Shown here: piece after piece, positions 28,880-41,185 of the stretch | Layout: the number at the start of each line of letters is the position of its first letter | How positions within the stretch are numbered: position 1 is the stretch's first letter | Source of the DNA: Chloroflexota bacterium | Lineage (GTDB): Bacteria > Chloroflexota > UBA11872 > VXOZ01 | Reading direction: 5' to 3' | DNA length: 64,000 nt | Assembly: GCA_965220015.1 (NCBI GenBank) | Contig: OZ244798.1 | Span: forward strand, 3,108,407-3,172,406 | Notes under the pieces: model-generated | The model's input: the letters and a program-made list of their open reading frames with translations, nothing else | What the model was told of the DNA's origin: nothing | Databases searched by the model: none | Made by a program: the position numbers and the translations under genes

Positions 28880-29644
28880 TTAACGCCCCTTTACCGCTAT
28901 ACCCTTTCGCTTGCACGCTTCCACCACGTGATCCTTCAACCACTCGCCTTGGCGCGTTACGAAGTATTCCAGCAGAGCGCGGCCCGCCGCGGCGGTGGCG
29001 ACGGCAGCATCGCTCTCGCTGAATTTACCCCAACTGCCGTCCGGAGCCAGCTTGTCCCACGGCACGTAGTCCATGTAGGCCTGTTCGTCCTCGGAGATTG
29101 CGCTGCCGAACGCGCCGGGAAGCACGCAGTCCGGCGCGAGAAAGAGCGCAAGGGCGCGGGACTCCGCGCCGCCGTGTACTTCGCCGCGATCAGCAAGACC
29201 GGCGTGTTCCCGCGCCTCGTTCCAGACGCGGACACCGCCCTGATGGGCATTTACGACCACAATGTCCGAAAACTGCCAGTTGATATGCTTGATAAAGGCC
29301 GGCAGCCAGTACGAACCGCCATGGCCGCACGTGAGCACCTGTTTGCGGAAGCCCTGCGCCCGCAGCCCGGCTACGATCTCCTCCAGCACGAGCATCACGG
29401 TATTGGGGCGGAGCGTGACCGTGCCCGTGAACGATGCGTGCTCTTCAGCAGTATTGAACGGCAAGGTGGGCAACACGTAGGCGTCGAGCCGTTCGCCAAA
29501 TGCACGCGCAAAGTACTCCGCGACGAGCGTATCAAGGTGCAAGGGCAAGCACGGGCCGCACTGCTCGGTGGAGCCGACACTGATAACGGCCGTGTCAATG
29601 CCGGATTCTGAGAGTTGCTTCGTCGAATCATAGTATGAAAGCAC
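28880..29644 (-). CDS. Creatininase family protein
   Basis: GSTEQCGPCLPLHLD, EHASFTGT, GHGG, HGG motifs. Confidence 0.88.
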   Translation of the reverse strand: MLSYYDSTKQLSESGIDTAVISVGSTEQCGPCLPLHLDTLVAEYFARAFGERLDAYVLPTLPFNTAEEHASFTGTVTLRPNTVMLVLEEIVAGLRAQGFRKQVLTCGHGGSYWLPAFIKHINWQFSDIVVVNAHQGGVRVWNEAREHAGLADRGEVHGGAESRALALFLAPDCVLPGAFGSAISEDEQAYMDYVPWDKLAPDGSWGKFSESDAAVATAAAGRALLEYFVTRQGEWLKDHVVEACKRKGIAVKGR

Positions 29645-29756
29645 GTTCCAAACCTAACTAATTCGCAAAAAATGAACAGTTAACTCAGACGGGATATTCT
29701 TGTGGCACACTCAAGGCATTCTGAGCTAGAGTGAAGAGGGACAGGAGGTAACGTTT

Positions 29757-29942
29757 ATGGAGAGTTATGAGTTCATAGGTTCTTTAGCCGTTACGGTTAT
29801 GGCAGTTGCGACGCTCATATGGCGCTTTGAGACTCGCATATCCGGTGTTGAAACACGCATCAGTGAATTGTCCGTCCGCGTGTCTCGCATCGAGGGCCTG
29901 CATGAAGGGTACTTCTTGCAAGCGAGCAAGAAAGAGGATTAG
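29757..29942 (+). CDS. Small TM plus coiled-coil hypothetical protein
   Basis: AGGAGGT RBS; hydrophobic N-terminus, ETRIS repeats, RVSRIEG. Confidence 0.7.
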   Translation: MESYEFIGSLAVTVMAVATLIWRFETRISGVETRISELSVRVSRIEGLHEGYFLQASKKED

Positions 29943-29990
29943 ACACCGCTTCCGGCAGCACTGCAGTCTACCAAGTACGGAAATACTAGT

Positions 29991-30022
29991 AAGCCCGCCT
30001 CGCATGAAGCAGGCGGGTTTTA
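29991..30022. terminator. Likely bidirectional terminator
   Basis: AAGCCCGCCT...AGGCGGGTTT hairpin between convergent genes. Confidence 0.6.
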
Positions 30023-30023
30023 T

Positions 30024-31232
30024 TTACGCTAAGACCGGATAGAGTAGTTCATCGAAAGTCACCGCGCGATTACTGTGGTCGATACTCAGGCGTACGGCCT
30101 CGGCGATGGCAGTGCCGACGACGGCCTGTTGCGGCAGGGGGCGCTTCTTAGCAAGTTCCGCGAGCATGCCGCGCCGCACCTGCAGCGCCTGCGCCGCGTC
30201 CATACCCTCGGTTTCGCGCAGGATGCGCCGCGCGTCGTGCACGCCCTGCATTACGCTATCGTAGCCATAGCCCACGTACTCGGTGCCCTCGCCGTCCCAC
30301 GGCTCGTATTGCTTGAAGAAGTTCGGGTTGAAGTGCTCGAAGCCCTTGTCCTGGGTGACGAAATGCAGCTTGCGGTCTTTGTGGTCGGCCCAGTATTCGC
30401 CCTGCGTGCCCGAAAGCTGCAGGCCCTGGTTCGTGAGCGAACTATTCGCTTCCGCGCACACCCATGACGTCTGCACCCAGAGCACCGAGCCGTCAGTCCA
30501 TTCGATTACGCCCTGCACCGCGTCAAACGCGTCCTGGCCCTGTGTGGGCAGGAACTTCTTCTGGCCGAAGCCCCACACACGCGCGGGCTTGAGGCCGGTG
30601 ATGTAGTAATAGGCATCGGCGTAGTGCACGCCAATATATTCAAAAGGAGAGCTTTCCTCGGCCCACAAGGAAAAAATATCCAGCGGCATCTCGCGCCGCT
30701 CTTCGATCCACGCGTGGCCGTGCAACATCTCGCCCAAGTGTCCCTGGCGGTAGTAGCGCTGGGCCGCGCGGATGGCGCGGTCGTGGCGCTTATGGTAGTC
30801 GGTGTAGACGTAGATGCCCTTGTTTTCCGCAGCGGTAAGAATGGTGTAGACATCCGCGACTTTGAGACAGAGCGGCTTTTGCACCACCACGTGGTGGCCG
30901 CGTTCGATTGCCTCCAGAATCATCTCGGTGTGGAGATGATCGGGTGTCGCCACCATCACCACGCCGTGGGGATCAAGGTCGTCCAGAGCCGCCTTGTAGG
31001 AATCGGGGAAAGAAGCCTCGGGATGGCTGGTGTCCGGGTCGGGGTAGCCCTGAAACGCATAGCTAGGAAACAGCTCGCGAACTTTGCGCAAGGTGCTTGC
31101 CCGCCGCGAGGCGATGCTCACCTTGCCCACTACGCCGCGGTCTTGTTCTTGAAACAGCGTCGGCAAGATCACGTCCTGGCTGATCATGCCGCCGCCGATG
31201 AGAAGTACGGGTACTCTACCGTCCCACGCCAT
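30024..31232 (-). CDS. Gfo/Idh/MocA family oxidoreductase
   Basis: IGGGMIS, ATPDHLH, QKPL, HKRHD. Confidence 0.9.
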   Translation of the reverse strand: MAWDGRVPVLLIGGGMISQDVILPTLFQEQDRGVVGKVSIASRRASTLRKVRELFPSYAFQGYPDPDTSHPEASFPDSYKAALDDLDPHGVVMVATPDHLHTEMILEAIERGHHVVVQKPLCLKVADVYTILTAAENKGIYVYTDYHKRHDRAIRAAQRYYRQGHLGEMLHGHAWIEERREMPLDIFSLWAEESSPFEYIGVHYADAYYYITGLKPARVWGFGQKKFLPTQGQDAFDAVQGVIEWTDGSVLWVQTSWVCAEANSSLTNQGLQLSGTQGEYWADHKDRKLHFVTQDKGFEHFNPNFFKQYEPWDGEGTEYVGYGYDSVMQGVHDARRILRETEGMDAAQALQVRRGMLAELAKKRPLPQQAVVGTAIAEAVRLSIDHSNRAVTFDELLYPVLA

Positions 31233-32153
31233 CAGGCTCTCACCTCATAATCTGTCACTGCATTCCGCTACGAATGCAAGAGTTCATTTACGTATCCTTG
31301 TCCTGACGCCCATCTGAAACGCTCGCACACTCCCGGCCCGGCAGGCGCAAATACCCCCTCGCTCTGGGGGGAGAGGCCCGGGTGAGGGGGACTTCTCCCC
31401 GTTCCCGCGCCTTTGCGCCGTCGGCAGAGTTACGCGAAGGTCTCCTTGGGCGAAATCAAGCGTAGCGGCAGTCTACCATAGCGCCGCCGTGTCCTCAAAG
31501 AATTTAGCTATTTTACATCAGCGCCTCATGGCTAGTCAGTTTCGTCAGTTGCGCAGGCTTGCAACCTGCACAAGCTCGGCGTTGGGCCTGACACGAGGCG
31601 ATCCTACTATTCCGTCGGTGCGGCGAAACGCCCATCCTTCACGTACGACAAGGCGTGATCAAGTAAAGACAAATAGCCGCTTGCGCGGGAAAGACATTGA
31701 ATCCCTGAAACATAAGCCAGTCCATCGTTGCCTTGATCACTTGACCTTCCCGCCAAGTCAGCAGCATACTCGAAACCGGTCGTAGATTTGTCATGCGCCG
31801 AGGAGGCAGAGCGATCATGGGCAATCGCAGGCGAATGACACGCCGGATCCTGCTCAGAGGAGCGGCAAGCAGTGCAGGCATGGTGGCCTTGGCGGCGTGC
31901 GGCACGGCGACGGCGACCCCGGAATCCGGTGAATCACCGCAAGCGGATACCAAAGCTGAGGAAAGCAATTAGTAGTTTCGGACTTATGTGATTTTGTGGG
32001 GGGTTGCGCTCGTACGGAAAAGGGTTGACAACTCTATCGTGAGGTAGACTCGCGTACGCGGGGTATTGGTGGTAAAATGAGGTTAGTTAAAACCACAGGG
32101 GTCCAGTGCGGAAACACTGAACCCCCACCCACTCCCATAAGGAGTTAGCAGAC

Positions 32154-32318
32154 ATGTCTGCGTTTAAAGTATCAGAAGCTATCCAGCCCTGCAAGGGCTG
32201 CTCGCAGTCGTTCCCCGTCTCCGTCCTCTCGGTCGAGGGGCTGTGCGCAAGCTGCGCCGAACTCAAAGGCTCTAAGTCGTTGGGCTTTCTGTGGCTCCGG
32301 CTCGCTGTGGAAGAGTAG
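32154..32318 (+). CDS. 54-aa putative zinc-finger microprotein
   Basis: TAAGGAG RBS; MSAFKVSEAIQPCKGCSQSFPVSVLSVEGLCASCAELKGSKSLGFLWLRLAVEE (CxxC...CxxC); below the ORF-track cutoff. Confidence 0.6.
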   Translation: MSAFKVSEAIQPCKGCSQSFPVSVLSVEGLCASCAELKGSKSLGFLWLRLAVEE

Positions 32319-32355
32319 CTAGCCGTCGGGCCTTGCGCTGGAATCATGGGAGGGA

Positions 32356-32547
32356 CTATTGCATCACGAGCGACAATTGGTACCACGCGCCATCGCCCCG
32401 CTTGGCAAACACACGAGCTAAGAAATCCAGGTCGGGCTTGGGGGGTGGTTCATCAGAGAGGACTATGTTGCCGATCCCAACCGGACCTTGCAAGAAGATT
32501 GGCGCGACAGGGTTGACGTGGTAGGGGCGCACGTATAAACTACGCAT
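32356..32547 (-). CDS. 63-aa hypothetical protein
   Basis: ORF track; preceded by hairpin and AGAAAG, like the 33703 module. Confidence 0.4.
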   Translation of the reverse strand: MRSLYVRPYHVNPVAPIFLQGPVGIGNIVLSDEPPPKPDLDFLARVFAKRGDGAWYQLSLVMQ

Positions 32548-32757
32548 TAGCTAGCTGCTTTCTGCCCCGGCGCTTCAACGCCGGGGCGGTTCCATTTAAC
32601 TGTTGCGCCTAGTGTATCAGGGTGCTACAAATGCTACTCCTGCCCCTCACGGGGCTAGCTGGAAACAACACAATTCCTGTGGCAATCTCAGTCTACCACA
32701 TAGCAAGGGTTGACAAGGGATAATTGGACAGTTAGCGTGAGGGTGAAAGGAGTGGTG

Positions 32758-32952
32758 ATGGATTCAAAAGAAGAACGCGTGGCACGTCTCGAAGGCGGCT
32801 ACGAACATCTGGCAACGAAGGCGGATGTTGAGCGAATCTTGGTGCAGATGGCGGAGTTGCGCGGTGAGTTTCGCGGTATCAAGTGGGCCCTGATTACTTC
32901 TATCGCCTTAGCCGGCATCACAGTTGCGGCCGTTGCCTTTCTCGCTAGTTAA
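32758..32952 (+). CDS. Small coiled-coil/C-terminal TM protein (DUF1640/XhlA-like 'HLATKAD' type)
   Basis: AAAGGAG RBS; RVARLEGGYEHLATKADV...KWALITSIALAGITVAAVAFL. Confidence 0.72.
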   Translation: MDSKEERVARLEGGYEHLATKADVERILVQMAELRGEFRGIKWALITSIALAGITVAAVAFLAS

Positions 32953-33039
32953 GAAGGAGGTGCGCTTTGATCTGTCTTTGTCCGTCGCCCATACGGGCGG
33001 CAAAGAGTAGGTCGTTCTTTGTCACAGAGGAGACTAGAC

Positions 33040-33336
33040 ATGAGAAAGCTCATCATCCTTGGGTTAGTCCTGATTTTGGCGTTGCTCCCAAGCAGCGCCT
33101 ACACCGCTGACACTCCCGACTACACCGATCCCACTGTCCTACAGGGAATCATGCAAGACTTGGAAGCGTCGGATGATCCGCATCAGGCGTTCTCCCAGCT
33201 ACCACCGGCGGTCCAGCAAGCGATCATGGATTCTATTCGGGAGAATGTGACGATTGAGGGACCGTTCGAGACTAGGAGCGGAGTTGTTCTCCATTGCCTA
33301 AGCCGCCACCATTACCCGCACCATAGCAAGGGTTGA
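33040..33336 (+). CDS. Secreted hypothetical protein, possibly 3'-truncated
   Basis: GAGGAG RBS; MRKLIILGLVLILALLPSSAYTA signal peptide; stop falls inside a direct repeat. Confidence 0.6.
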   Translation: MRKLIILGLVLILALLPSSAYTADTPDYTDPTVLQGIMQDLEASDDPHQAFSQLPPAVQQAIMDSIRENVTIEGPFETRSGVVLHCLSRHHYPHHSKG

Positions 33337-33347
33337 CAAGGGATAAT

Positions 33348-33376
33348 TGGTCAGGCAAGAGGGATGGGAATATAAT
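33348..33376 (+). promoter_or_regulatory. Sigma70-like promoter for the CAG tRNA-like gene
   Basis: TGGTCA-17 bp-TATAAT, followed by a perfect 26-bp palindrome 33377..33402. Confidence 0.6.
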
Positions 33377-33413
33377 AACCCCGTACCGATCGGTACGGGG
33401 TTTCGTTTTCTAC

Positions 33414-33508
33414 GGAGGGTATTGTCTGTCAGTACAGAACCAGTGCTCAGAACACTCGGAGCGCCAGGGCATAGTCCTGGCGTTGCGGTGCAACTCCGCT
33501 ACCCTCCG
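33414..33508 (+). tRNA. Non-canonical (8/4) allo-tRNA-like gene, anticodon CAG, Ser-type body
   Basis: Acceptor GGAGGGTA/TACCCTCC (8 bp) plus G73; D arm TCTGT-CAGT-ACAGA; anticodon AGTG-CT CAG AA-CACT; ~11-bp V arm; T arm GCGG-TGCAACT-CCGC (4 bp); no encoded CCA. Confidence 0.8.
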
Positions 33509-33702
33509 CAGCCTTTCACAAACCACCGCAACAGCTTCACTCTACAGTGGCTAGGATTAATTTGTCAACCCGCCGCCATTGCCCGCGCCATGAAGTCGTC
33601 CCAGGGCATCTCGGCTCGTCAAGTCCTCGTTTGGTAGACTAGACATAGTTAAATAGAGCCGCCCCGGCGCGTCAACGCCGGGGCAGAAAGGCAACCCAGG
33701 TT

Positions 33703-33906
33703 ATGGGTATTCTACGTCTACCTCGTCGCCGCGTCAAGTCCCCGTTTGCAGACGGCATCCCGAAGCGCAAACGACCTGCCACGCTCAATGGCGAGTGCGG
33801 GGCTTCGGCTTTTGCTAGTATAGAATCACAATTAAAAGCCACGCCCCCAGTGCGGAAACACTGGGGGCCAAACTCCAAGAAGGAGCATAGACATGTCTAT
33901 GCGTAG
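33703..33906 (+). CDS. Small basic hypothetical peptide
   Basis: Shares RRVKSPFADGIPKRKRPATL with the next ORF through a 61-bp duplication. Confidence 0.35.
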   Translation: MGILRLPRRRVKSPFADGIPKRKRPATLNGECGASAFASIESQLKATPPVRKHWGPNSKKEHRHVYA

Positions 33907-34054
33907 AGTACCCTTGCGTCCCCGCCGCGTCAAGTCCCCGTTTGCAGACGGCATCCCGAAGCGCAAACGACCTGCCACGCTCAGACCGCTACCTATGCCG
34001 CGCCTGAAACCGTTGACACCGCTGCCTAAGCTATCGCCATTGCCTGCGCCATGA
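33893..34054 (+). CDS. 53-aa Pro/Arg/Lys/Leu-rich peptide
   Basis: AAGGAG RBS; MSMRRVPLRPRRVKSPFADGIPKRKRPATLRPLPMPRLKPLTPLPKLSPLPAP; overlaps the transposase 3' end. Confidence 0.45.
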   Translation: MSMRRVPLRPRRVKSPFADGIPKRKRPATLRPLPMPRLKPLTPLPKLSPLPAP

Positions 34055-34883
34055 AGTCGTCCCAGGGCATCTCGGCCTTGCGGATATTGTACTTGTAGGT
34101 AGCCTCGTCGATGTAGGCGTGGGCGTGTTCCACCGTGTAGTGGTGGTGCTGGCCGGCAATGGCTCGCTTCACCAAGCTCCAGAACCCCTCGATGGTGTTC
34201 GTATGGGTGATACCGTCAACGTAGTGGATGCTGTGGTTGACCGTCTTGTGGGCCATCCAGTCGCGCACTTCGTTGTAGCCGGGGAACTGATCGGTCATGA
34301 GGACAGCTCGGGGATCCACGTTGCGGCGCAGGAAAGCGTTGATGAGCCGTGCCGTGACGCGGGGCGAGGGTTGCGCCTTCACCTTACCGTCGCGCTCGAC
34401 CGCGCCAACCACGGTGATCTTCTTCGTGCGGCCGCGCGAACGTTGCTCGTTGTTCTTGCGGGGCTTGCCGCCGATGTAGGTTTCGTCCGCTTCGACGATG
34501 CCGGACAGGAACGTGCTGTCGTCCACCATCGCCTTGCGGATGCGCATGGCCATGTACCAAGCCGACTTCTGGTTACAATCCAGGTCCCTGGCAAGCTGGC
34601 AGCTTGATACGGACTTCTTGGCGTTGATCAGGATAGCGATAGCGGCGAACCACTTTTGCAGGGGAATCTTCGTGCCCTGGAAGATGGTGCCGGAGAGGAC
34701 TTTGAAGGTGGACAGGCAGTTGTGGCAATTCCAGCGGCCCACGTGTTTATGCTCGGTCTTGCGGGCCACGTCGTTGCTGTTGCAGTAGGGGCAGCGAGGG
34801 TCGTCACCCCAGCGGAGCTGCTCCAGGTGGGCGATGCAGGCTTCCTGAGTGGGAAAGCGCTTGGCAATCGTCAAGAGGTTCAT
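34026..34883 (-). CDS. IS1595-family transposase
   Basis: LRW..CPYC...CHNC zinc ribbon; VEADETY, LMTD, NTIEGFWSLVKR catalytic motifs; CAGGAG RBS. Confidence 0.95.
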   Translation of the reverse strand: MNLLTIAKRFPTQEACIAHLEQLRWGDDPRCPYCNSNDVARKTEHKHVGRWNCHNCLSTFKVLSGTIFQGTKIPLQKWFAAIAILINAKKSVSSCQLARDLDCNQKSAWYMAMRIRKAMVDDSTFLSGIVEADETYIGGKPRKNNEQRSRGRTKKITVVGAVERDGKVKAQPSPRVTARLINAFLRRNVDPRAVLMTDQFPGYNEVRDWMAHKTVNHSIHYVDGITHTNTIEGFWSLVKRAIAGQHHHYTVEHAHAYIDEATYKYNIRKAEMPWDDFMAQAMAIA

Positions 34884-34911
34884 GGTATACTCCTGTTACC
34901 GGTAAGAAAAA

Positions 34912-34999
34912 GGAGCCGGTGGGATTCGAACCCACGGAAGCGCGCGCACACCTCACCCGATTCTCAGTCGGGTCCTTTAGACCGCTCAGGCACGGCTCC
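34912..34999 (-). tRNA. tRNA with Ser-type body and GAG (Leu) anticodon
   Basis: GGAGCCG TG CCTGAGCGGTCTAAAGG A CCCGA CT GAG AA TCGGG T GAGGTGT-GCGC-GCGCTTC C GTGGG TTCGAAT CCCAC CGGCTCC; next base U; no CCA. Confidence 0.85.
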
Positions 35000-35039
35000 T
35001 CGCAGAACCATCAGATTGAATTATCTGGTGGTTCTTTGC

Positions 35040-35048
35040 ATTATATCA
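35040..35048 (-). promoter_or_regulatory. Extended -10 promoter for the GAG tRNA and transposase
   Basis: TGA-TATAAT on the minus strand, then 13-bp hairpin 35004..35035 just before the tRNA. Confidence 0.6.
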
Positions 35049-35106
35049 GGGAAGCGCTTGGAGACTTCGAGTACATTCATAAGCAACCTTTCAAAGGGGT
35101 TTGAAC

Positions 35107-35310
35107 ATGACAGTGGATAATGGGGAACGGACATATTGTGTGCAATTGGATCCAGTGAGCGGATCATGGCCGCCTGTGATACGGCTAAAGGCAGACAAAC
35201 TAGCGAAGAAAGCTGGACCAGGGCAGCTTGTTTTCACACTCGGCGAAGAAGAAGTAGGGGAGATTACGGCGAAGGTCGCCGCGTGGTGGATTTGCGAAGA
35301 AACCGAGTAG
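35107..35310 (+). CDS. Small hypothetical protein
   Basis: AAGGGG upstream; MTVDNGERTY...EEVGEITAKVAAWWI. Confidence 0.55.
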   Translation: MTVDNGERTYCVQLDPVSGSWPPVIRLKADKLAKKAGPGQLVFTLGEEEVGEITAKVAAWWICEETE

Positions 35311-35342
35311 CTCATGGGCAATCTTTCTGAGGAGGGTATGGA

Positions 35343-35624
35343 ATGAAACGGGATATGGGTCTCATTCGGATGATTTTGGGTTATGTGGAAGAGAACGGGA
35401 ACGGGAACAGACCGTTACTTGCACCTGAATTTGAGCACTTTTGCCAGTTTGAGAAAGCTAAGATTGCGTACCATATTGGGTTGTGCCATGACGCAGGGTT
35501 CATCCTGCTAGCCAATTCTGTAGAGGCACACAGACGATGCACACACGGCGCGTACCAGATTATCGGACTTACCTGGGAAGGACACGAGAAGCTCGATGCA
35601 CTGCGTGGCGATCACTACGACTAA
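35343..35624 (+). CDS. DUF2513-like winged-helix protein
   Basis: MKRDMGLIRMIL, YHIGLC..AGFI, LTWEGHEKLD; GAGGAGG RBS. Confidence 0.8.
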   Translation: MKRDMGLIRMILGYVEENGNGNRPLLAPEFEHFCQFEKAKIAYHIGLCHDAGFILLANSVEAHRRCTHGAYQIIGLTWEGHEKLDALRGDHYD

Positions 35625-35667
35625 CCCTTTCACCTCCTGACTTCATTACCCCACCCCGTCAAGAGGT

Positions 35668-35985
35668 TCATGAGTTATTCTCTTGGGAAGCGCTCACGCT
35701 ACCAATACCGAAGGTGTGTAAGCATTCGGCGTCTTTGTTGATCTGATCCAACAACTCACGCAATTCCCTTATGCACTCAGCCAGATTGTCACGCTCACCA
35801 TAGAAGGATGGGATTGAAACGATGCTAGGATTATTTTGTAAGGATCGACCAAAGGACTCGATGGTCCCCCCCATACTTGAAAGTTTTGCGCGGATGACAA
35901 CTGCGCGTTGTTGATTAGAGATATGCCTGCGAACAAGATCGCCTAAAACTTGACTGTACTCTTCTTCCGTCATATCATTCTTCAT
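35668..35985 (-). CDS. Hypothetical helical protein
   Basis: AGGAGGT RBS; 105-aa ORF bracketed by 35-bp direct repeats. Confidence 0.65.
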   Translation of the reverse strand: MKNDMTEEEYSQVLGDLVRRHISNQQRAVVIRAKLSSMGGTIESFGRSLQNNPSIVSIPSFYGERDNLAECIRELRELLDQINKDAECLHTFGIGSVSASQENNS

Positions 35986-37325
35986 TCTCGTTACCTCCTG
36001 ACTTCATTATCCCACCCCGTCAAGAGGATGTCAAGTCCGAAACTACTAATTCCGGCTGAGGAAGCCCCCAAGACACTGGCGCAGACCACCGTCAGCGCCC
36101 TTATGGTGCTGCGGGGCCAGAACGAAACGTGGATCAAATCCTGGCTTACCATCTTTGCGGACTTCGAAGCCAAGCACCCCGAACATAAGCTGGAAATAAT
36201 CGATTCCGCATTCGACCAAGTTTCCGCAAGGGCGACCACTACCATGGCTGCCGGTTTCACGTTTGATGCCATCTACGGCTACTTTGGCTGGCTGGGGCTG
36301 TTTGTCGATGCGGGAATCATCCAGGCGATCAGTCCCCTCTTGGCGAAAGACACCGAAGTCTCCCAGGATGACTTCTATGAATTCGGATTTCTCAAACACA
36401 AAGGCATTGCCTATGGACTGGCGTGGCTGCTCACCGCCCACCCCATTTGGTCCAACAATGACAAGTTCGTCGAGGCGGGCTTGAAGACTCCCGCCGAGCT
36501 CGAAGCCGAAGGCAACTGGACGTGGGAAGCCGCGCTGGAAGCCGCAGTCAGGCTCACCAAGCGCGAGGGCGATGACCTCACGTTTGGCGGCCTGCAGATC
36601 TACCCCATGTACACGTCAAATCTGCCGTACTATGCCTGGGCGTGGGGCGCGGACTTGTGGAATGAAGGTTGCACGCAGGCCACGTTCAACACCCCTGCGT
36701 TTGCTGATGCGGTGCAATTCTGCGTCGACCTCTTTGCCAAACACAAGGTTATTGGCGGCAACTTCCTGGAAGGCACCTTGGGCATGTTCGAGCGGGCTAC
36801 CGGCGGCGTGCGCCAATTCGAGGAGAGGATCACGGCGCGCGACCTCTTCGAGATTGGCATGGCGCCCCGGCCGAAGGGGCCGAATGGCGAACGTGCAACG
36901 GTCATGACGCCCAGCGGTATCTTCATAGGCTATGGCGCCAAGAACGCGGAAGGCGGCTGGGCCTTCAGCAAATACACGGTGAGCGCCGACGCACTGCCGG
37001 AGATCGCAGCCACCGGCCACGGTCGCTTCACCGCCAACAAAAATCTGGAGCCGTTGACGCTCCATCCCTACGAGAACCCCGAAGTCTACAAGCAGATGGC
37101 AAGCGAAGGCCGGCCGGTGCCGCAATTGCTCAGGCAAGACGACTTCACCACCGAGTGGCGTGCCACGTGGGACGCAATGGTGAAGGGCTCGCTCACCGTC
37201 GCCGAGGGTATGGCGAAGACCCAAGCGCAGATGCAAGGCTGGATTAATAGAGGCGGCTGCCTGTGGTAGAAGCGCAAAGCCGCATTGCTTCGTTGAGATG
37301 CCGCTGCGTCATGGGGAAGACGCTG

Positions 37326-37806
37326 GTAGGGGCACGACGTGTCATAGCCCTACGTGACTGGACTAATAGAGGCGGCTGCCTGCGCTATTTGCTCAGAGCG
37401 CGGCGGTGCGCTCCACCGTTGCATCAGACCGGATACCGGTAGGGGCACGACGTGTCATAGCCCTACGTGACTGGACTAATAGAGGCGGCTGCCTGCGCTA
37501 TTTGCTCAGAGCGCGGCGGTGCGCTCCACCGTTGCATCAGACCGGATACCGGTAGGGGCACGATGTGTCATAGCCCTACGTGACTGGATTAATAGAGGCG
37601 GCTGCCTGCGCTATTTGCTCAGAGCGCTCCGCCGCGCTCCACCGTTGCACCAGACCGGACACCGGTAGGGGCACGATGTGTCATAGCCCTACGTGACTGG
37701 ATTAATAGAGGCGGCTGCCTGCGCTATTTGCTCAGAGCGCGGCGGTGCGCTCCACCGTTGCATCAGACCGGATACCGGTAGGGGCACGACATGTCGTGCC
37801 CCTACT
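37326..37806 (+). repeat. Tandem array of four 113-bp units plus terminal REP (BIME-like)
   Basis: GTAGGGGCACGA starts at 37326, 37439, 37552, 37665, 37778. Confidence 0.9.
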
Positions 37807-38023
37807 CCTTATCTTGTTGTCGAAGTTCATGAGTACCTCTTCGTCAATCAAGTGGGCATTACTCGTGGCGAAGAGACGCTGGAATTCGGCTTTCAGCGAA
37901 ATGGCAGTGTCTTGACAAACCCTTTTTGTGTAAACCACCTTTTTTCTCTCTTGACAGTCTTGCTTTTCTAGTACCATACTTTATACCGGAAGTCATGTAA
38001 TCAAACACGTAGGAGGCAAAGCG

Positions 38024-39379
38024 ATGCAGGGCGAAAGTAGTCGAATGACACGCCGGTTCGTGCTCCGAGGAGCCGCAGGTGGCGCGGGCCTGCTGGCACT
38101 GGCGGCATGCGGCACCGCGACCATGGCGCCCCAAGAAGGCGAAGCGCCTAAAGAAGAGATGAAGGCGGAAGAAGCGCCCAAGGCGATGGAGCCAACCGTC
38201 GTCAACGCGCTCATGGTGCTGCAGGGCCAGAACGAGACGTGGATCAACTCCTGGAATACCATCTTCGCCAACTTCGAAGCCAAGCACCCCGAATACAAGC
38301 TGGAAATCGCCGATTCCGGGTTTAGGGAAGTCACGACCAAAGCGGGCGCAGCCCTGGCGGCCGGTATTTCCTTCGACGACATCTACGGGTATTTCGGTTG
38401 GTTGGGGCCGTTTGTGGACGGAGGGATCATCCAGCCGGTCACGCCGCTGCTGGCGAAAGACTCTGAGGTATCCCCGGATGACTTCTACGAATCCGGCATT
38501 CTCAAGTACAAAGGCGTGGCGTACGGTCTCGCGTGGCTGCTCACCGCGCATCCCATTTGGTTCAACAAGGACAAGTTCGTTGAGGCTGGCCTGAAGACCC
38601 CGGCCGAGCTTGAAGATGAGGGCAACTGGACATGGGATGCCGTGCTGGAAGCCGCCGTGCGACTCACTAAGCGCGAGGGTGATGAAATCGCGTTTGGCGG
38701 CTTGCGCATCTACCCCACGCACACGTCCTACCTGCCCTACTATGCTTGGGCGTGGGGCGCGGACCTATGGAATGAAGGGTGCACGCAAGCCACGTTCAAC
38801 ACCCCGGAGTTTGCCGACGCGGTGCAATTCTGCGTAGACCTCTTTGCCAAGCACAGGGTAATCGGCGGCAACTTTCTCGAGGGCACCCTGGGCATGTTCG
38901 AGCGCGCAACCGGCGGCGTGCGCCAGTTCGAGGAGCGGATCACGGCCAACAATCTCTTTGAGATCGGCATGGCGCCCCGGCCGAAGGGGCCGAACGGCGA
39001 ACGCGCTACGGTCATGACACCCATCGGCATCTTCATCGGCGAAGGCGCCAAGAACCCCGAGGGCGGCTGGGCCTTCCTCAAGTACACGGTGAGCGCCGAC
39101 GCGCTGCCGGAGGTCGCTGCCACCGGTCAGGGTCGCTTTACGGCCAATAAGCATCTGGAACCGCTGACGCTCTTCCCGTATGAAAACGCCGAATATTACA
39201 AGCAGATGGCGAGCGAAGGCCGCCCGGTGCCGCAACTGCTGAAGCAGGGCGACTTCAATACCGAGTGGCGCGCCACGTGGGACGCCATGGCGGAGGGATC
39301 GCTCACCGTCGCTGAGGGTATGGCGAAGACCCAAGAGCAGGTGCAAGGCTGGATCAACGAAGGCGGCTGCCTGCGCTAA
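38024..39379 (+). CDS. ABC transporter solute-binding lipoprotein (Tat signal), carbohydrate-type SBP family 1
   Basis: TRRFVL twin-arginine, LAACG lipobox, WFNKDKF.EAGL, WTWD. Confidence 0.9.
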   Translation: MQGESSRMTRRFVLRGAAGGAGLLALAACGTATMAPQEGEAPKEEMKAEEAPKAMEPTVVNALMVLQGQNETWINSWNTIFANFEAKHPEYKLEIADSGFREVTTKAGAALAAGISFDDIYGYFGWLGPFVDGGIIQPVTPLLAKDSEVSPDDFYESGILKYKGVAYGLAWLLTAHPIWFNKDKFVEAGLKTPAELEDEGNWTWDAVLEAAVRLTKREGDEIAFGGLRIYPTHTSYLPYYAWAWGADLWNEGCTQATFNTPEFADAVQFCVDLFAKHRVIGGNFLEGTLGMFERATGGVRQFEERITANNLFEIGMAPRPKGPNGERATVMTPIGIFIGEGAKNPEGGWAFLKYTVSADALPEVAATGQGRFTANKHLEPLTLFPYENAEYYKQMASEGRPVPQLLKQGDFNTEWRATWDAMAEGSLTVAEGMAKTQEQVQGWINEGGCLR

Positions 39380-39805
39380 TCGCTCGAAGCGCGGCGGTGC
39401 GCTCCACAGTTGCATCAGACCGAAAACCGGTAGGGGCACGACATGTCGTGCCCCTACTTCGTTTCTCTCCTTGTGTCTGACCTGATTTGAAAACTCTCTC
39501 TATCTCCGGCATTAACCGGCATTAAGGACACGCCTGCGATTACCCGTGTAACTTAAGACGAAGCAGAAAGCCTGTTATGAACCTGGTCTGGTATCAACGA
39601 AAGCTAGTAGCTTCCCGATATCCACGCAGGTAGCCCGCAAAGCCCGTATTTTTCAAATTGCTTTGCATTCTATGCTAAAATATGAGGGATGCATTCTGCA
39701 AAAAGCATTGCGCAAAGGGGTGAGTCCATTCGGGATAAACAAGCGCAGTTCTCGCTAGGGTGCGGAAGAATTTTCTAGTAGTATTTGCCCAGGAGGGTAG
39801 ATTCG

Positions 39806-41185
39806 ATGGCATCATTGTCCAGACGTCATTTCCTCGGCACAGCCGCGCTTACCGGCGCAGGTGCGCTGCTCGCGGCGTGCGGTGCTCAGACAGGCATGGA
39901 GGAAATGGAAGAAGCCGCGCCGGAAGAGAAAGATGCGGCCGCAGAGCCGATGATGGAAAAGTCGCCGGTCGTCTTCTGGTACACCGGCATAGCGCCGTGG
40001 AACTTCGATAGGGAAGAGATTCCTTTGCAGCTCCGTGCGGAGTTCGATGAGACCACCAACTACACGCTGGTGCCGCTCATTCGCGGCAACGGCGGTTTTG
40101 GCGATATTCCCACCGTGGTGGCAGCGGGTGTCGCGCCGGATAACTCCAAGACCCAGTCCTACATCCAGCCCCAATGGGGTCTGCTGGAACTCGTCCGTCC
40201 GCTCGATTCCTATATTGCTTCCGCTGCCAATGTGCCATTGGACGATCTCTGGCCGGGGAAGTACGAGGGCATGCAGTGGGCGGGTAAGACCTATGGCATC
40301 AGCTATAGCATCGACGCCCGCATCATCTATCTGAACGTCGACCACTCGCTGGAAGCGGGCCTAGATCCCGAAACACCGCCGGCCTCCCGGGATGAGATGG
40401 ACGAAGCACTGCTCAAGGTGCACAAGACAGAGGGCGACAACATCGCCCGTCTCGGCTGGGACCCCTTCCGCGGTTCCGGCGGCATCCACACGTGGATGGT
40501 CGGCTACTGGCAGCAGGGCGGTGAGATGCTCAGCCCGGACCGGACGAAGATCCAGGTCAACAATGATCTCGCCATCAACACCGTGACCTGGCTCAAGAAA
40601 GTCCTTGACGGTCAGGGTGGTTACAACAAGGTCCGCGAGTTCCACGGCACCTTCGAGAACCGCTTGCAGGAGTACGGCAGCGGCGGCAATACGTACATGT
40701 ACCTGACCAATGCTACCCGTGCCTCCATGGCGCCCTACGCGGAAGGCCTCAACTACGACTTTGGGCCATATCCGGCGCTGGATTCCAGCACCGCCCTGCC
40801 AGCCACCTATTCCGGTGACTGGGCGTTCTGCCTGCCCAACGGCAGCAGCAACCCCGACGGCGGCTTCGCCTGGGCCGACTTCATGTACGGCGCCGACGTG
40901 AACCTGCGCTGGTCGCTGGCCATGGACCGCATCCCGGTCCGCCAGGGTGTGGCGCAGAGCGATGCCTACATTGGCGATGACAAGCTCCGCAGGCTCGCCA
41001 TTGATGAGATGGTTGGCGCCCGCTTTGTCGTGAGCGTGCCCGGCGCGGGTGCCATCCTCCCGATCACGAGCAGGAACCTGCAGGCGATCATGCGCAATGA
41101 GGTCACGGTTGCTGAAGGTATGCGCAATTTCGAGGAGCAAGCCCAGACGGCGATGGACGAGTTCATCGCGGAGTTTGGTGGCTAG
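39806..41185 (+). CDS. ABC transporter solute-binding lipoprotein (Tat signal)
   Basis: SRRHFL, LAACG, GKTYGI, YLN...EAGLDPE. Confidence 0.9.
   Translation: MASLSRRHFLGTAALTGAGALLAACGAQTGMEEMEEAAPEEKDAAAEPMMEKSPVVFWYTGIAPWNFDREEIPLQLRAEFDETTNYTLVPLIRGNGGFGDIPTVVAAGVAPDNSKTQSYIQPQWGLLELVRPLDSYIASAANVPLDDLWPGKYEGMQWAGKTYGISYSIDARIIYLNVDHSLEAGLDPETPPASRDEMDEALLKVHKTEGDNIARLGWDPFRGSGGIHTWMVGYWQQGGEMLSPDRTKIQVNNDLAINTVTWLKKVLDGQGGYNKVREFHGTFENRLQEYGSGGNTYMYLTNATRASMAPYAEGLNYDFGPYPALDSSTALPATYSGDWAFCLPNGSSNPDGGFAWADFMYGADVNLRWSLAMDRIPVRQGVAQSDAYIGDDKLRRLAIDEMVGARFVVSVPGAGAILPITSRNLQAIMRNEVTVAEGMRNFEEQAQTAMDEFIAEFGG

Follow-up and report, generated by a model that had tools for sequence, protein, structure and literature searches.

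We report here an intact extra tRNA gene in which a serine-type body is combined with the anticodon GAG, reading the codons CUC and CUU. The gene, termed T1 in the following, is located at 34911..34999 (minus strand) of a 64,000-nucleotide stretch of contig OZ244798.1 from a Chloroflexota bacterium (assembly GCA_965220015.1); this stretch is the window analysed here, and positions are those of the window unless stated otherwise. T1, a second odd tRNA gene (T2) and a transposase gene are content of one recently mobile IS1595-family element. T1 is of type II, with A37, U73 and no encoded CCA. It was matched end to end by Rfam family RF00005 (34999..34911, minus strand, 59.3 bits, E-value 2.8e-10), and the cloverleaf is the minimum-free-energy fold of its 89 nt taken alone. 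Read directly from the sequence, the acceptor stem GGAGCCG/CGGCUCC has 7 bp and zero mismatches; U8, G15 and C48 are present, and the D arm, CCU-GAGCGGUCUAA-AGG, has a 3-bp stem and an 11-nt loop. The anticodon stem CCCGA/UCGGG, which includes G30:C40, closes the loop CUGAGAA (GAG, then A37 and A38), the variable stem of 7 bp (three pairs being G.U, loop GCGC) is preceded by U44 and abuts C48, and the T arm is GUGGG-UUCGAAU-CCCAC. All five helices are free of mismatches, and the usual tertiary bases are all there. The discriminator, a U at 34911, is followed by UUUUC, and the fold predicted in context allows an acceptor helix of 8-9 bp through the additional pairs A-1:U73 and G-2.U74. An earlier description made from the letters of the window alone (hereafter the original prediction) had proposed a canonical 7/5 cloverleaf with a GGAG start, G15:C48, a 7-bp variable stem, A37-A38 and GAG, as well as a discriminator U able to pair with A-1; Rfam, ARAGORN and the fold bear out the former, and the fold in context the latter. 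Its warning that a caller relying on the anticodon would mislabel the gene was also justified, as ARAGORN reports tRNA-Leu(gag) at 34910-35000.

Bacterial leucyl-tRNA synthetase (LeuRS) is not known to read the anticodon. The identity of the T1 body was examined using covariance models built from the host and relatives of its class, with the cloverleaf set by hand: 14 sequences for serine (CGA, GGA, GCU and UGA) and 20 for leucine, 15 of which carry GAG. T1 scored 72.1 bits on the Ser model, aligned end to end, and 47.2 bits on the Leu model. The host tRNA-Ser genes of the training set gave 89-100 and 47.5-52.0 bits on the two models, respectively, the host Ser(GCU) gene held out of training gave 72.4 and 38.5 bits, and the host tRNA-Leu genes gave 41-67 and 82-107 bits; host tRNA-Tyr reached 60.5 bits on the Ser model, the type-II models compared being those for Ser and Leu. 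T1 thus behaves as a serine tRNA, despite a Leu model that is rich in GAG sequences. Full-length BLAST matches to T1 were found in five genomes of the same class (72-74% identity), and ARAGORN calls all five tRNA-Ser(CGA). When the anticodon was masked, T1 was closest to Ser-gga, Tyr-gta and Ser-cga among the host tRNAs, and host Ser(CGA) and Ser(GGA) have exactly the same 17-nt T arm. T1 shares with host tRNA-Ser the pairs G1:C72, G2:C71 and G30:C40 and a long variable arm with one unpaired base on each side, and alignment with the four host tRNA-Ser genes shows that its variable arm and its D loop, with G15:C48, are of the Ser type. By comparison, A15 and A73 occur in 20/20 tRNA-Leu of the class and G37 in all 15 that read with GAG, where T1 has G15, U73 and A37, and A73 is likewise found in the five host tRNA-Leu genes. 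Nor does T1 resemble tRNA-Sec (8/5 branch, 6-bp D stem, UCA), from which its D arm and anticodon differ and which it approaches only in the possible eighth acceptor pair A-1:U73; the host has a tRNA-Sec of its own. Altogether, the sequence comparisons support a body of the Ser type and not of the Leu type, as the original prediction had claimed: the best isotype match is Ser by the class-built models, with the full-length tRNA-Ser(CGA) matches pointing the same way, and T1 is distinct from the housekeeping tRNA-Leu(GAG), which lies elsewhere in the genome (C1 2907792-2907879, GCCGAAG start, A73-CCA).

The host genome is a single contig of 3,555,265 bp (59% G+C) with 50 ARAGORN tRNA calls. Its tRNA-Leu set is complete (UAA, CAG, CAA, UAG and GAG, all with A73), and since the full set is kept there is no sign of codon reassignment. 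The housekeeping tRNA-Leu(GAG) is 95-99% identical in 16/16 genus genomes, and no orthologue of T1 was present in any of these 16, the best hits being 25-nt T-arm matches to tRNA-Ser genes. One Seryl_tRNA_N match, that of the host seryl-tRNA synthetase (SerRS), and six class-IIa cores of usual sizes were obtained, and neither an extra SerRS paralogue nor a dedicated synthetase partner was found in the genome. As a separate observation, a 95-nt ARAGORN call of tRNA-Arg(tct) at genome position C1 3544832-3544926 looks like a false positive.

The transposon that carries T1 is 4092 bp long (31964..36055) and is inserted in a solute-binding-protein gene. Its left terminal inverted repeat, AATTAGTAGTTTCGGACTT (31967..31985, plus strand), is 19 nt long and 100% complementary to the right one (36033..36051, minus strand, 19 nt), and the element is flanked by two copies of the 8-bp target-site duplication CTGAGGAA (31956..31963 and 36056..36063). 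According to ISfinder, target duplications of the IS1595 family are 8 bp in length. The transposase, a DDE enzyme of 285 aa (34026..34883, minus strand), matches DDE_Tnp_IS1595 (6.4e-35) and Zn_ribbon_IS1595 (1e-09) and is the sole copy in the genome according to whole-genome tblastn, so that the element combines the DDE_Tnp_IS1595 domain and N-terminal zinc ribbon with the terminal inverted repeats and 8-bp duplication of its family. When window positions 29000-41000 were compared with 16 genus genomes, the flanks of the element were syntenic, and in three of the genomes (G004, G005 and G007) they meet directly, overlapping by 8 bp. The split gene consists of a signal-peptide part (31793-31972) and a remainder within 35950-37269; the region 35950-41185 is a tandem array of paralogous solute-binding-protein genes, of which the transposon splits the first. 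In two public runs, X1 and X3, compared through their contigs only and with parts lacking X3 cover not counted as evidence, contigs run from 31955 straight on to 36056, leaving out 4100 bases and with 8 bases in common, as expected of an empty site. The element too is present in these runs, X3 having contigs whose ends fall at 31964 (start) and 36054 (end). No RNA run was among those listed as covering the region. The presence of both the empty site and the element in the same runs implies that the insertion is polymorphic and recent.

The surroundings of T1 within the element are unusual for this group of insertion sequences (ISs). In 17 related IS copies of the genus that were compared, the terminal repeat holds a -35 box, followed by TACAAT, AGGAGGT and an ATG about 66 nt from the tip. 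In the window, the corresponding canonical IS promoter (TTGACA-17-GATAAT, 11/12 consensus positions, TG before; 36034..36006), to which the right inverted repeat contributes, precedes not the transposase but a reading frame of 105 codons (ORF105; 35668..35985, minus strand), which lies behind this promoter and a Shine-Dalgarno (SD) sequence. The transposase instead follows T1 on the same strand. The original prediction had the strand right, and the distance of 28 nt that it gave was measured as 27 nt from U73 to the ATG (at 34883); this spacer (34884..34910, minus strand) holds the SD motif AGGAG, which in the predicted fold pairs with transposase codons 3-5, and a consensus scan found no terminator-like site between T1 and the ATG. 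Upstream of T1, the extended -10-like motif TGATATAAT (35040..35048, minus strand) and a 13-bp hairpin in the 5' leader (35004..35035, minus strand) are both there, by sequence reading and by fold and sequence respectively, as had been predicted, although the consensus scan lists a different and weaker site, CTGATA-18-GATAAT (9/12, 35049..35020), overlapping TGATATAAT. A strong 5'-leader hairpin is a feature of both cargo tRNAs (33377-33402 before T2, 35004-35035 before T1). The element interior contains several direct repeats and two remnants of the transposase 3' end, one of which, of 42 bp (33574..33615, minus strand), duplicates 34035-34076; from these a mosaic history of the interior can be deduced. 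Internal duplications include leader copies at 35632-35666 and 35993-36027 and a 16-nt copy of the transposase start at 34869 and 35657. Parts of the transposase leader and start, with a CCTCTTGACG core, are thus found in three copies (34869-34884, 35632-35672 and 35993-36030), which suggests that the transposase became separated from its promoter when IS copies recombined. Copies of the IS in the genus measured 1606, 1959, 2406 and 3242 bp, as determined from copy pairs, indicating that this IS group normally carries cargo; none of 20 genus copies had a cargo tRNA.

The second tRNA gene of the element, T2 (33414..33509, plus strand, 96 nt), lies about 1.4 kb from T1. It resembles the 8/4 allo-tRNAs, has the anticodon CAG and G73, and is called tRNA-Leu(cag) by ARAGORN. 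Its minimum-free-energy fold has an acceptor stem of 8 bp, a D stem of 5 bp with the tetraloop CAGU, a variable stem of 11 bp and a T stem of 4 bp. Rfam did not find T2 at the gathering threshold, and at E<=1 there was no tRNA or tRNA-Sec match, the only one being a sub-threshold match to the Tymovirus tRNA-like family. Directly before the gene, the consensus scan found a promoter-like TGGTCA-17-TATAAT followed by an 11-bp palindromic hairpin and a T-run (33348..33402, plus strand); since the palindrome is perfect and the T-run follows it, the hairpin is terminator-like in look. A copy of T2 that is 90% identical, with homology limited to the tRNA itself, was recovered from a genus relative (G011) by ARAGORN at 90% thresholds. 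The two differ at 12/96 positions. Four of the differences form two fully compensatory pairs (acceptor-stem G:C replaced by A:U, anticodon-stem U:A by C:G), two turn the anticodon from CAG into AGG, three fall in the variable loop and the remaining three weaken two variable-stem pairs. With compensatory pairs on the one hand and two anticodon differences on the other, the fold has been conserved while the anticodon changed, and the structure of this sister cargo tRNA is, judging from the substitutions, under selection.

Are tRNAs of this kind associated with IS1595 elements elsewhere? A pattern scan for a 5' half of Ser type, NAG as anticodon followed by A37 and A38, a long variable arm and a T loop, which finds only sequences keeping the fixed bases of the pattern, gave 5 loci among the 185,579 species genomes scanned, a single one among viral contigs and 22 among metagenome contigs. 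These 28 loci represent 24 distinct tRNA sequences, and none resembles T1. That the 24 fit Ser better than Leu is partly built in, because the pattern demanded Ser-type features. Transposase homologues (30-38% identity) are encoded at five of the 28 loci (L089, L093, L094, L110 and L112), or at four of 24 when counted without redundancy, L110 and L112 being the same sequence; among 48 control loci around ordinary tRNA-Ser and tRNA-Leu genes of relatives (147 kb) there was none. DDE_Tnp_IS1595 was the most frequent Pfam family among 103 ORFs flanking 25 of the loci, with only three members. At L089 and L093 the acceptor stem of the tRNA is imperfect, with 4/7 and 5/7 pairs, respectively, and searches for inverted repeats in L089, L093, L094 and L110, and for the repeat motif of the window in distant IS loci, found nothing usable.

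Conversely, a transposase homologue was present in 65 of 401 genomes sampled from the phylum, and 129 other IS1595 loci of the phylum (748 kb) were examined for tRNA calls within about 3 kb at default ARAGORN thresholds. Sixteen calls were made, in 15 loci, and were classed with the anticodon masked against the host's 47 ordinary tRNAs: four agree with their anticodon (Arg, Gly, Val and Asn), two are unclear, and ten, in nine loci, are mismatched or allo-like. The last comprise 8/4-like bodies of Ser/Sec type with anticodons UGG, GAG and AAG (L164, L182 and L212); a body of Leu type (Leu model 78.9, Ser model 54.8) that has A73 and GGC, an Ala anticodon, and occurs at both L208 and L209, where a repeat at least 5.6 kb long is present in two identical copies; at L154, a tRNA with an Arg-like body and AGC; at L227, a tRNA with GCU, closest among host tRNAs to Arg-tct, Lys-ctt and Asn-gtt; two tRNAs at L207, one with a Pro-like body and UUG and one with a Cys-like body and UGC; and a short-arm tRNA with the Ser anticodon GCU (L210). 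The mixes of body and anticodon seen are therefore of several kinds, namely Ser with Leu or Pro, Leu with Ala, and Arg-, Pro- and Cys-like bodies with other anticodons. Lowering the ARAGORN thresholds to 90% gave 59 calls in the 129 loci, mostly implausible, which were left out of the counts. Relative to the transposase, the odd tRNAs are downstream on the same strand at L089, L094, L110, L182 and L154, convergent at L093, L164, L212, L227 and for T2, and divergent at L208/L209 and L210.

Some further observations were made at these and other loci. Adjoining the IS1595 transposases of L212 (2700-2809, minus strand) and L227 (3992-4092, minus strand) are Leu-type, long-arm tRNA-like sequences, detected by the Leu covariance model only (67.1 and 57.3 bits, respectively); default ARAGORN misses both. 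On the chromosome of a Dehalococcoidia metagenome-assembled genome, three odd tRNAs lie within 1 kb (L087:370-1278), a Ser-type tRNA with CAG being flanked by two ARAGORN calls whose anticodons are given as four bases (gccg) and two bases (cg). A genome of the same genus as the host (G009) has, at L006:1435-1528, a body of Ser(GCU) type with the Ile anticodon GAU, G73 and the acceptor stem of T1 and, at L006:2673-2746, a short tRNA with the Ala anticodon CGC and U73, lacking G3:U70, whose nearest host tRNAs are Gly; both adjoin a normal tRNA-Pro. At L131 and L133, a gene resembling DNA methyltransferases, with a DPPF/Y-type motif recognised by eye, follows the transposase stop as apparent cargo.

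We tentatively favour the reading that T1 is a weakly serylated CUC/CUU-to-Ser tRNA travelling as transposon cargo, and consider it quite possible, if short of probable. Its own extended -10 promoter would yield an RNA comprising both T1 and the transposase message, to which read-through starting at the right-inverted-repeat promoter may add. Excision of T1 by RNase P and a 3' endonuclease would follow, and then addition of CCA. Bacterial SerRS uses the long variable arm together with G1:C72, G2:C71 and G30:C40, the anticodon playing no part, as stated in parts of the source PMC9976931, where the variable arm is given as the main basis of Ser identity and G73 is described as only moderately important for Ser identity in E. 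coli and as an antideterminant against LeuRS. The host's only SerRS could thus serylate T1 through its long variable arm and tertiary shape and not through its anticodon, with U73 in place of G73 making it a poor substrate, and T1 would insert Ser at CUC and CUU at a level that is low or conditional. Its place before the transposase would follow from the rearranged interior of the element and would not be the reason for its existence.

A number of points weigh against this reading or narrow its basis. The discriminator is G73 in all four host tRNA-Ser genes, and in 19 of 25 rows of the pattern scan with at least six acceptor pairs (the window included), where T1 has U73. In long ORFs, 44.6 of every 1000 codons are CUC or CUU, which make up 44% of those for Leu; at such a frequency efficient insertion of Ser would be broadly toxic, and the activity of T1 must therefore be low or conditional. 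The element's own genes show no avoidance of these codons. T1 has no homologue in which selection on T1 itself could be traced. The covariance models were drawn from one class, the Ser model from 14 sequences, and the identity rules applied come from model organisms and may not be those of this phylum. The mismatch labels given to tRNAs at the other IS1595 loci rest on similarity to the nearest host tRNAs and inspection by eye rather than on curated isotype models, and element ends are established for the element of the window only; in one genome (G307), both genes are contained in a repeat that is at least 5.6 kb long. As for the candidate possibility that the transposase needs Ser at a Leu codon, it was rejected: none of its 15 Leu positions aligns with a conserved Ser, the residues found there in 13 homologues being L, I, V, M, T or similar ones.

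A bolder version, which we regard as rather doubtful, is that IS1595 transposons are regular vehicles of tRNAs whose identity and anticodon are mismatched, in effect mobile mistranslation modules, and that T1 is a functional Leu(CUY)-to-Ser tRNA in which U73 tunes charging to a tolerable level. If so, such modules would move between genomes with the anticodon changing while the fold stays.

Two other explanations of T1 are improbable, and about equally so. The first, which the original prediction had also put forward, is that T1 acts in cis as a tRNA-like processing or stability element of the transposase mRNA, cleavage by RNase P and on the 3' side setting the 5' end of the message and charging being irrelevant, with T1 also supplying the promoter that the transposase lost. 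This would fit its position 27 nt before the ATG on the transposase strand, the lack of a terminator-like site in the interval, the transposase being deprived of the canonical repeat promoter and SD that now precede ORF105, and the SD being sequestered in the predicted fold. However, at other IS1595 loci the odd tRNAs lie downstream of the transposase, convergent or divergent, and the cis-processing explanation is weakened by the fact that the leader position is not common to those loci. In 17/17 genus IS copies, moreover, the transposase is found behind the repeat promoter without any tRNA, and a mere processing signal would need no perfect anticodon arm, variable arm or Ser-type determinants.

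The second is that T1 is a recent passenger without function, i.e. a captured copy of a tRNA-Ser whose anticodon and discriminator have drifted and which is neither charged nor used, persisting only because of the youth of the insertion. T1 is indeed single-copy, with no homologue in 40 relatives and no similar match to the fixed-base pattern of the scan; the insertion is still polymorphic, the element interior is a mosaic of remnants, and T1 has U73 and no encoded CCA. Inactive variants of allo-tRNA(UAU) and a pseudogene overlapping a transposon-related ORF are, in addition, known from parts of PMC5389517. Drift would nevertheless have had to leave five helices without a mismatch and the usual tertiary bases in place, while moving the anticodon to GAG, at least two changes away from any Ser anticodon. 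It would also leave unexplained why T1 has a promoter-like signal of its own, why like mismatches recur in many IS1595 elements, and why T2 shows compensatory changes.

A less probable proposal still is that the cargo tRNAs have a role in trans outside translation, as an addiction or defence toxin or decoy, or as bait for tRNA-targeting nucleases. Parts of the allo-tRNA paper (PMC5389517) report allo-tRNA genes linked to toxin-antitoxin loci and transposons, and two neighbouring cargo ORFs of the present element match phage protein families. These are found in a DUF2513 protein of 93 aa (35343..35624, plus strand; Pfam 9.2e-16, phrog_585) and in a protein of 80 aa (phrog_736, weak DUF2730) from one of two small ORFs at 32710..33336 (plus strand); the N-terminus of the other, which has 105 aa, is hydrophobic. 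ORF69 (35101..35310, plus strand) has no family match in Pfam, PHROGs or PADLOC, and ORF105 none in PHROGs or PADLOC. Yet none of the seven element proteins has a PADLOC match, no recognisable toxin-antitoxin pair was found in the element with Pfam and PHROGs, and no evidence is specific to the idea. Finally, a working leucine tRNA, charged by LeuRS and supplementing CUC/CUU decoding, is very improbable, as the anticodon GAG and the missing G73 (the E. coli LeuRS antideterminant described in parts of PMC9976931) are set against U73 where 5/5 host and 20/20 class tRNA-Leu have A73, G15 with a Ser-type D loop and variable arm, A37 where 15/15 class Leu(GAG) have G37, and a Leu-model score of 47.2 bits that is within the range of serine tRNAs.

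Our data suggest that mismatched tRNAs travel as transposon cargo. Identity/anticodon-discordant tRNAs have been known since the allo-tRNA paper, with most examples coming from metagenome fragments; here, such a tRNA is found in a complete genome, with exact transposon ends and an empty-site allele in the same population, and the single SerRS and the normal tRNA-Leu(GAG) of that genome serve as an internal control. This makes it possible to ask whether such tRNAs are charged and used, how their toxicity is restrained, perhaps through U73, and why transposons carry them. Should the link to one IS family hold, it would offer a way to find further mismatched tRNAs, which anticodon-based annotation mislabels as ordinary tRNA-Leu.

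Compared with the housekeeping tRNA-Ser genes, T1 is alike in T arm, D-loop and variable-arm geometry, G1:C72, G2:C71 and G30:C40, and differs in its GAG anticodon, U73, acceptor pairs 5-7 (C:G, C:G, G:C) and lack of CCA. IS1595-family insertion sequences are known with passenger genes (ISfinder description), and the element of the window has the same transposase type, terminal repeats, 8-bp duplication and variable cargo, but differs in having two tRNAs with mismatched anticodons as cargo and a transposase displaced from the repeat promoter. Transcripts shared by tRNA and mRNA are known from the thrU-tyrU-glyT-thrT-tufB operon of E. coli, with which T1 would have in common a tRNA upstream of an ORF on what is probably one transcript. 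Natural tRNAs in which identity and anticodon disagree, and which serve to mistranslate or reassign sense codons, include the Candida tRNA-Ser(CAG) and the tRNA-ProX/ProRSx mistranslation pairs of Streptomyces; unlike these, T1 is transposon-borne, and the genome was found to have no dedicated synthetase paralogue. In the literature searched, the supplements of PMC5389517 aside, no description of tRNA cargo in IS1595 elements was found, and the main-text parts of that paper (supplements again aside) do not feature a defined IS1595 element with repeats and duplication. The closest relatives of the two cargo tRNAs in kind are the allo-tRNAs described there (Mukai et al. 2017, NAR; PMC5389517, in part), for which Clostridia, Proteobacteria and Acidobacteria are named as hosts. 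These have a long variable arm, G73 or U73, and Ser identity with non-Ser anticodons including GAG and other Leu anticodons, as well as an 8/4 or 9/3 division of the 12-bp acceptor branch and a tetraloop on a long D stem. T2 agrees with that description in the 8/4 branch, the long D stem with tetraloop, the long variable arm, G73 and the non-Ser anticodon. T1 has in common with them the long variable arm, membership of the G73/U73 class, a non-Ser anticodon and a tie to mobile loci; its 7/5 branch and its 3-bp D stem with an 11-nt loop imply that it is not an allo-tRNA by structure. The 8/4 allo-tRNA(GAG) of Silvibacterium bohemicum, in the same parts of that source, caused Ser incorporation at CUC in E. 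coli and killed cells when induced, and by analogy T1, which has the same anticodon on a 7/5 instead of an 8/4 fold, would be expected to do likewise.

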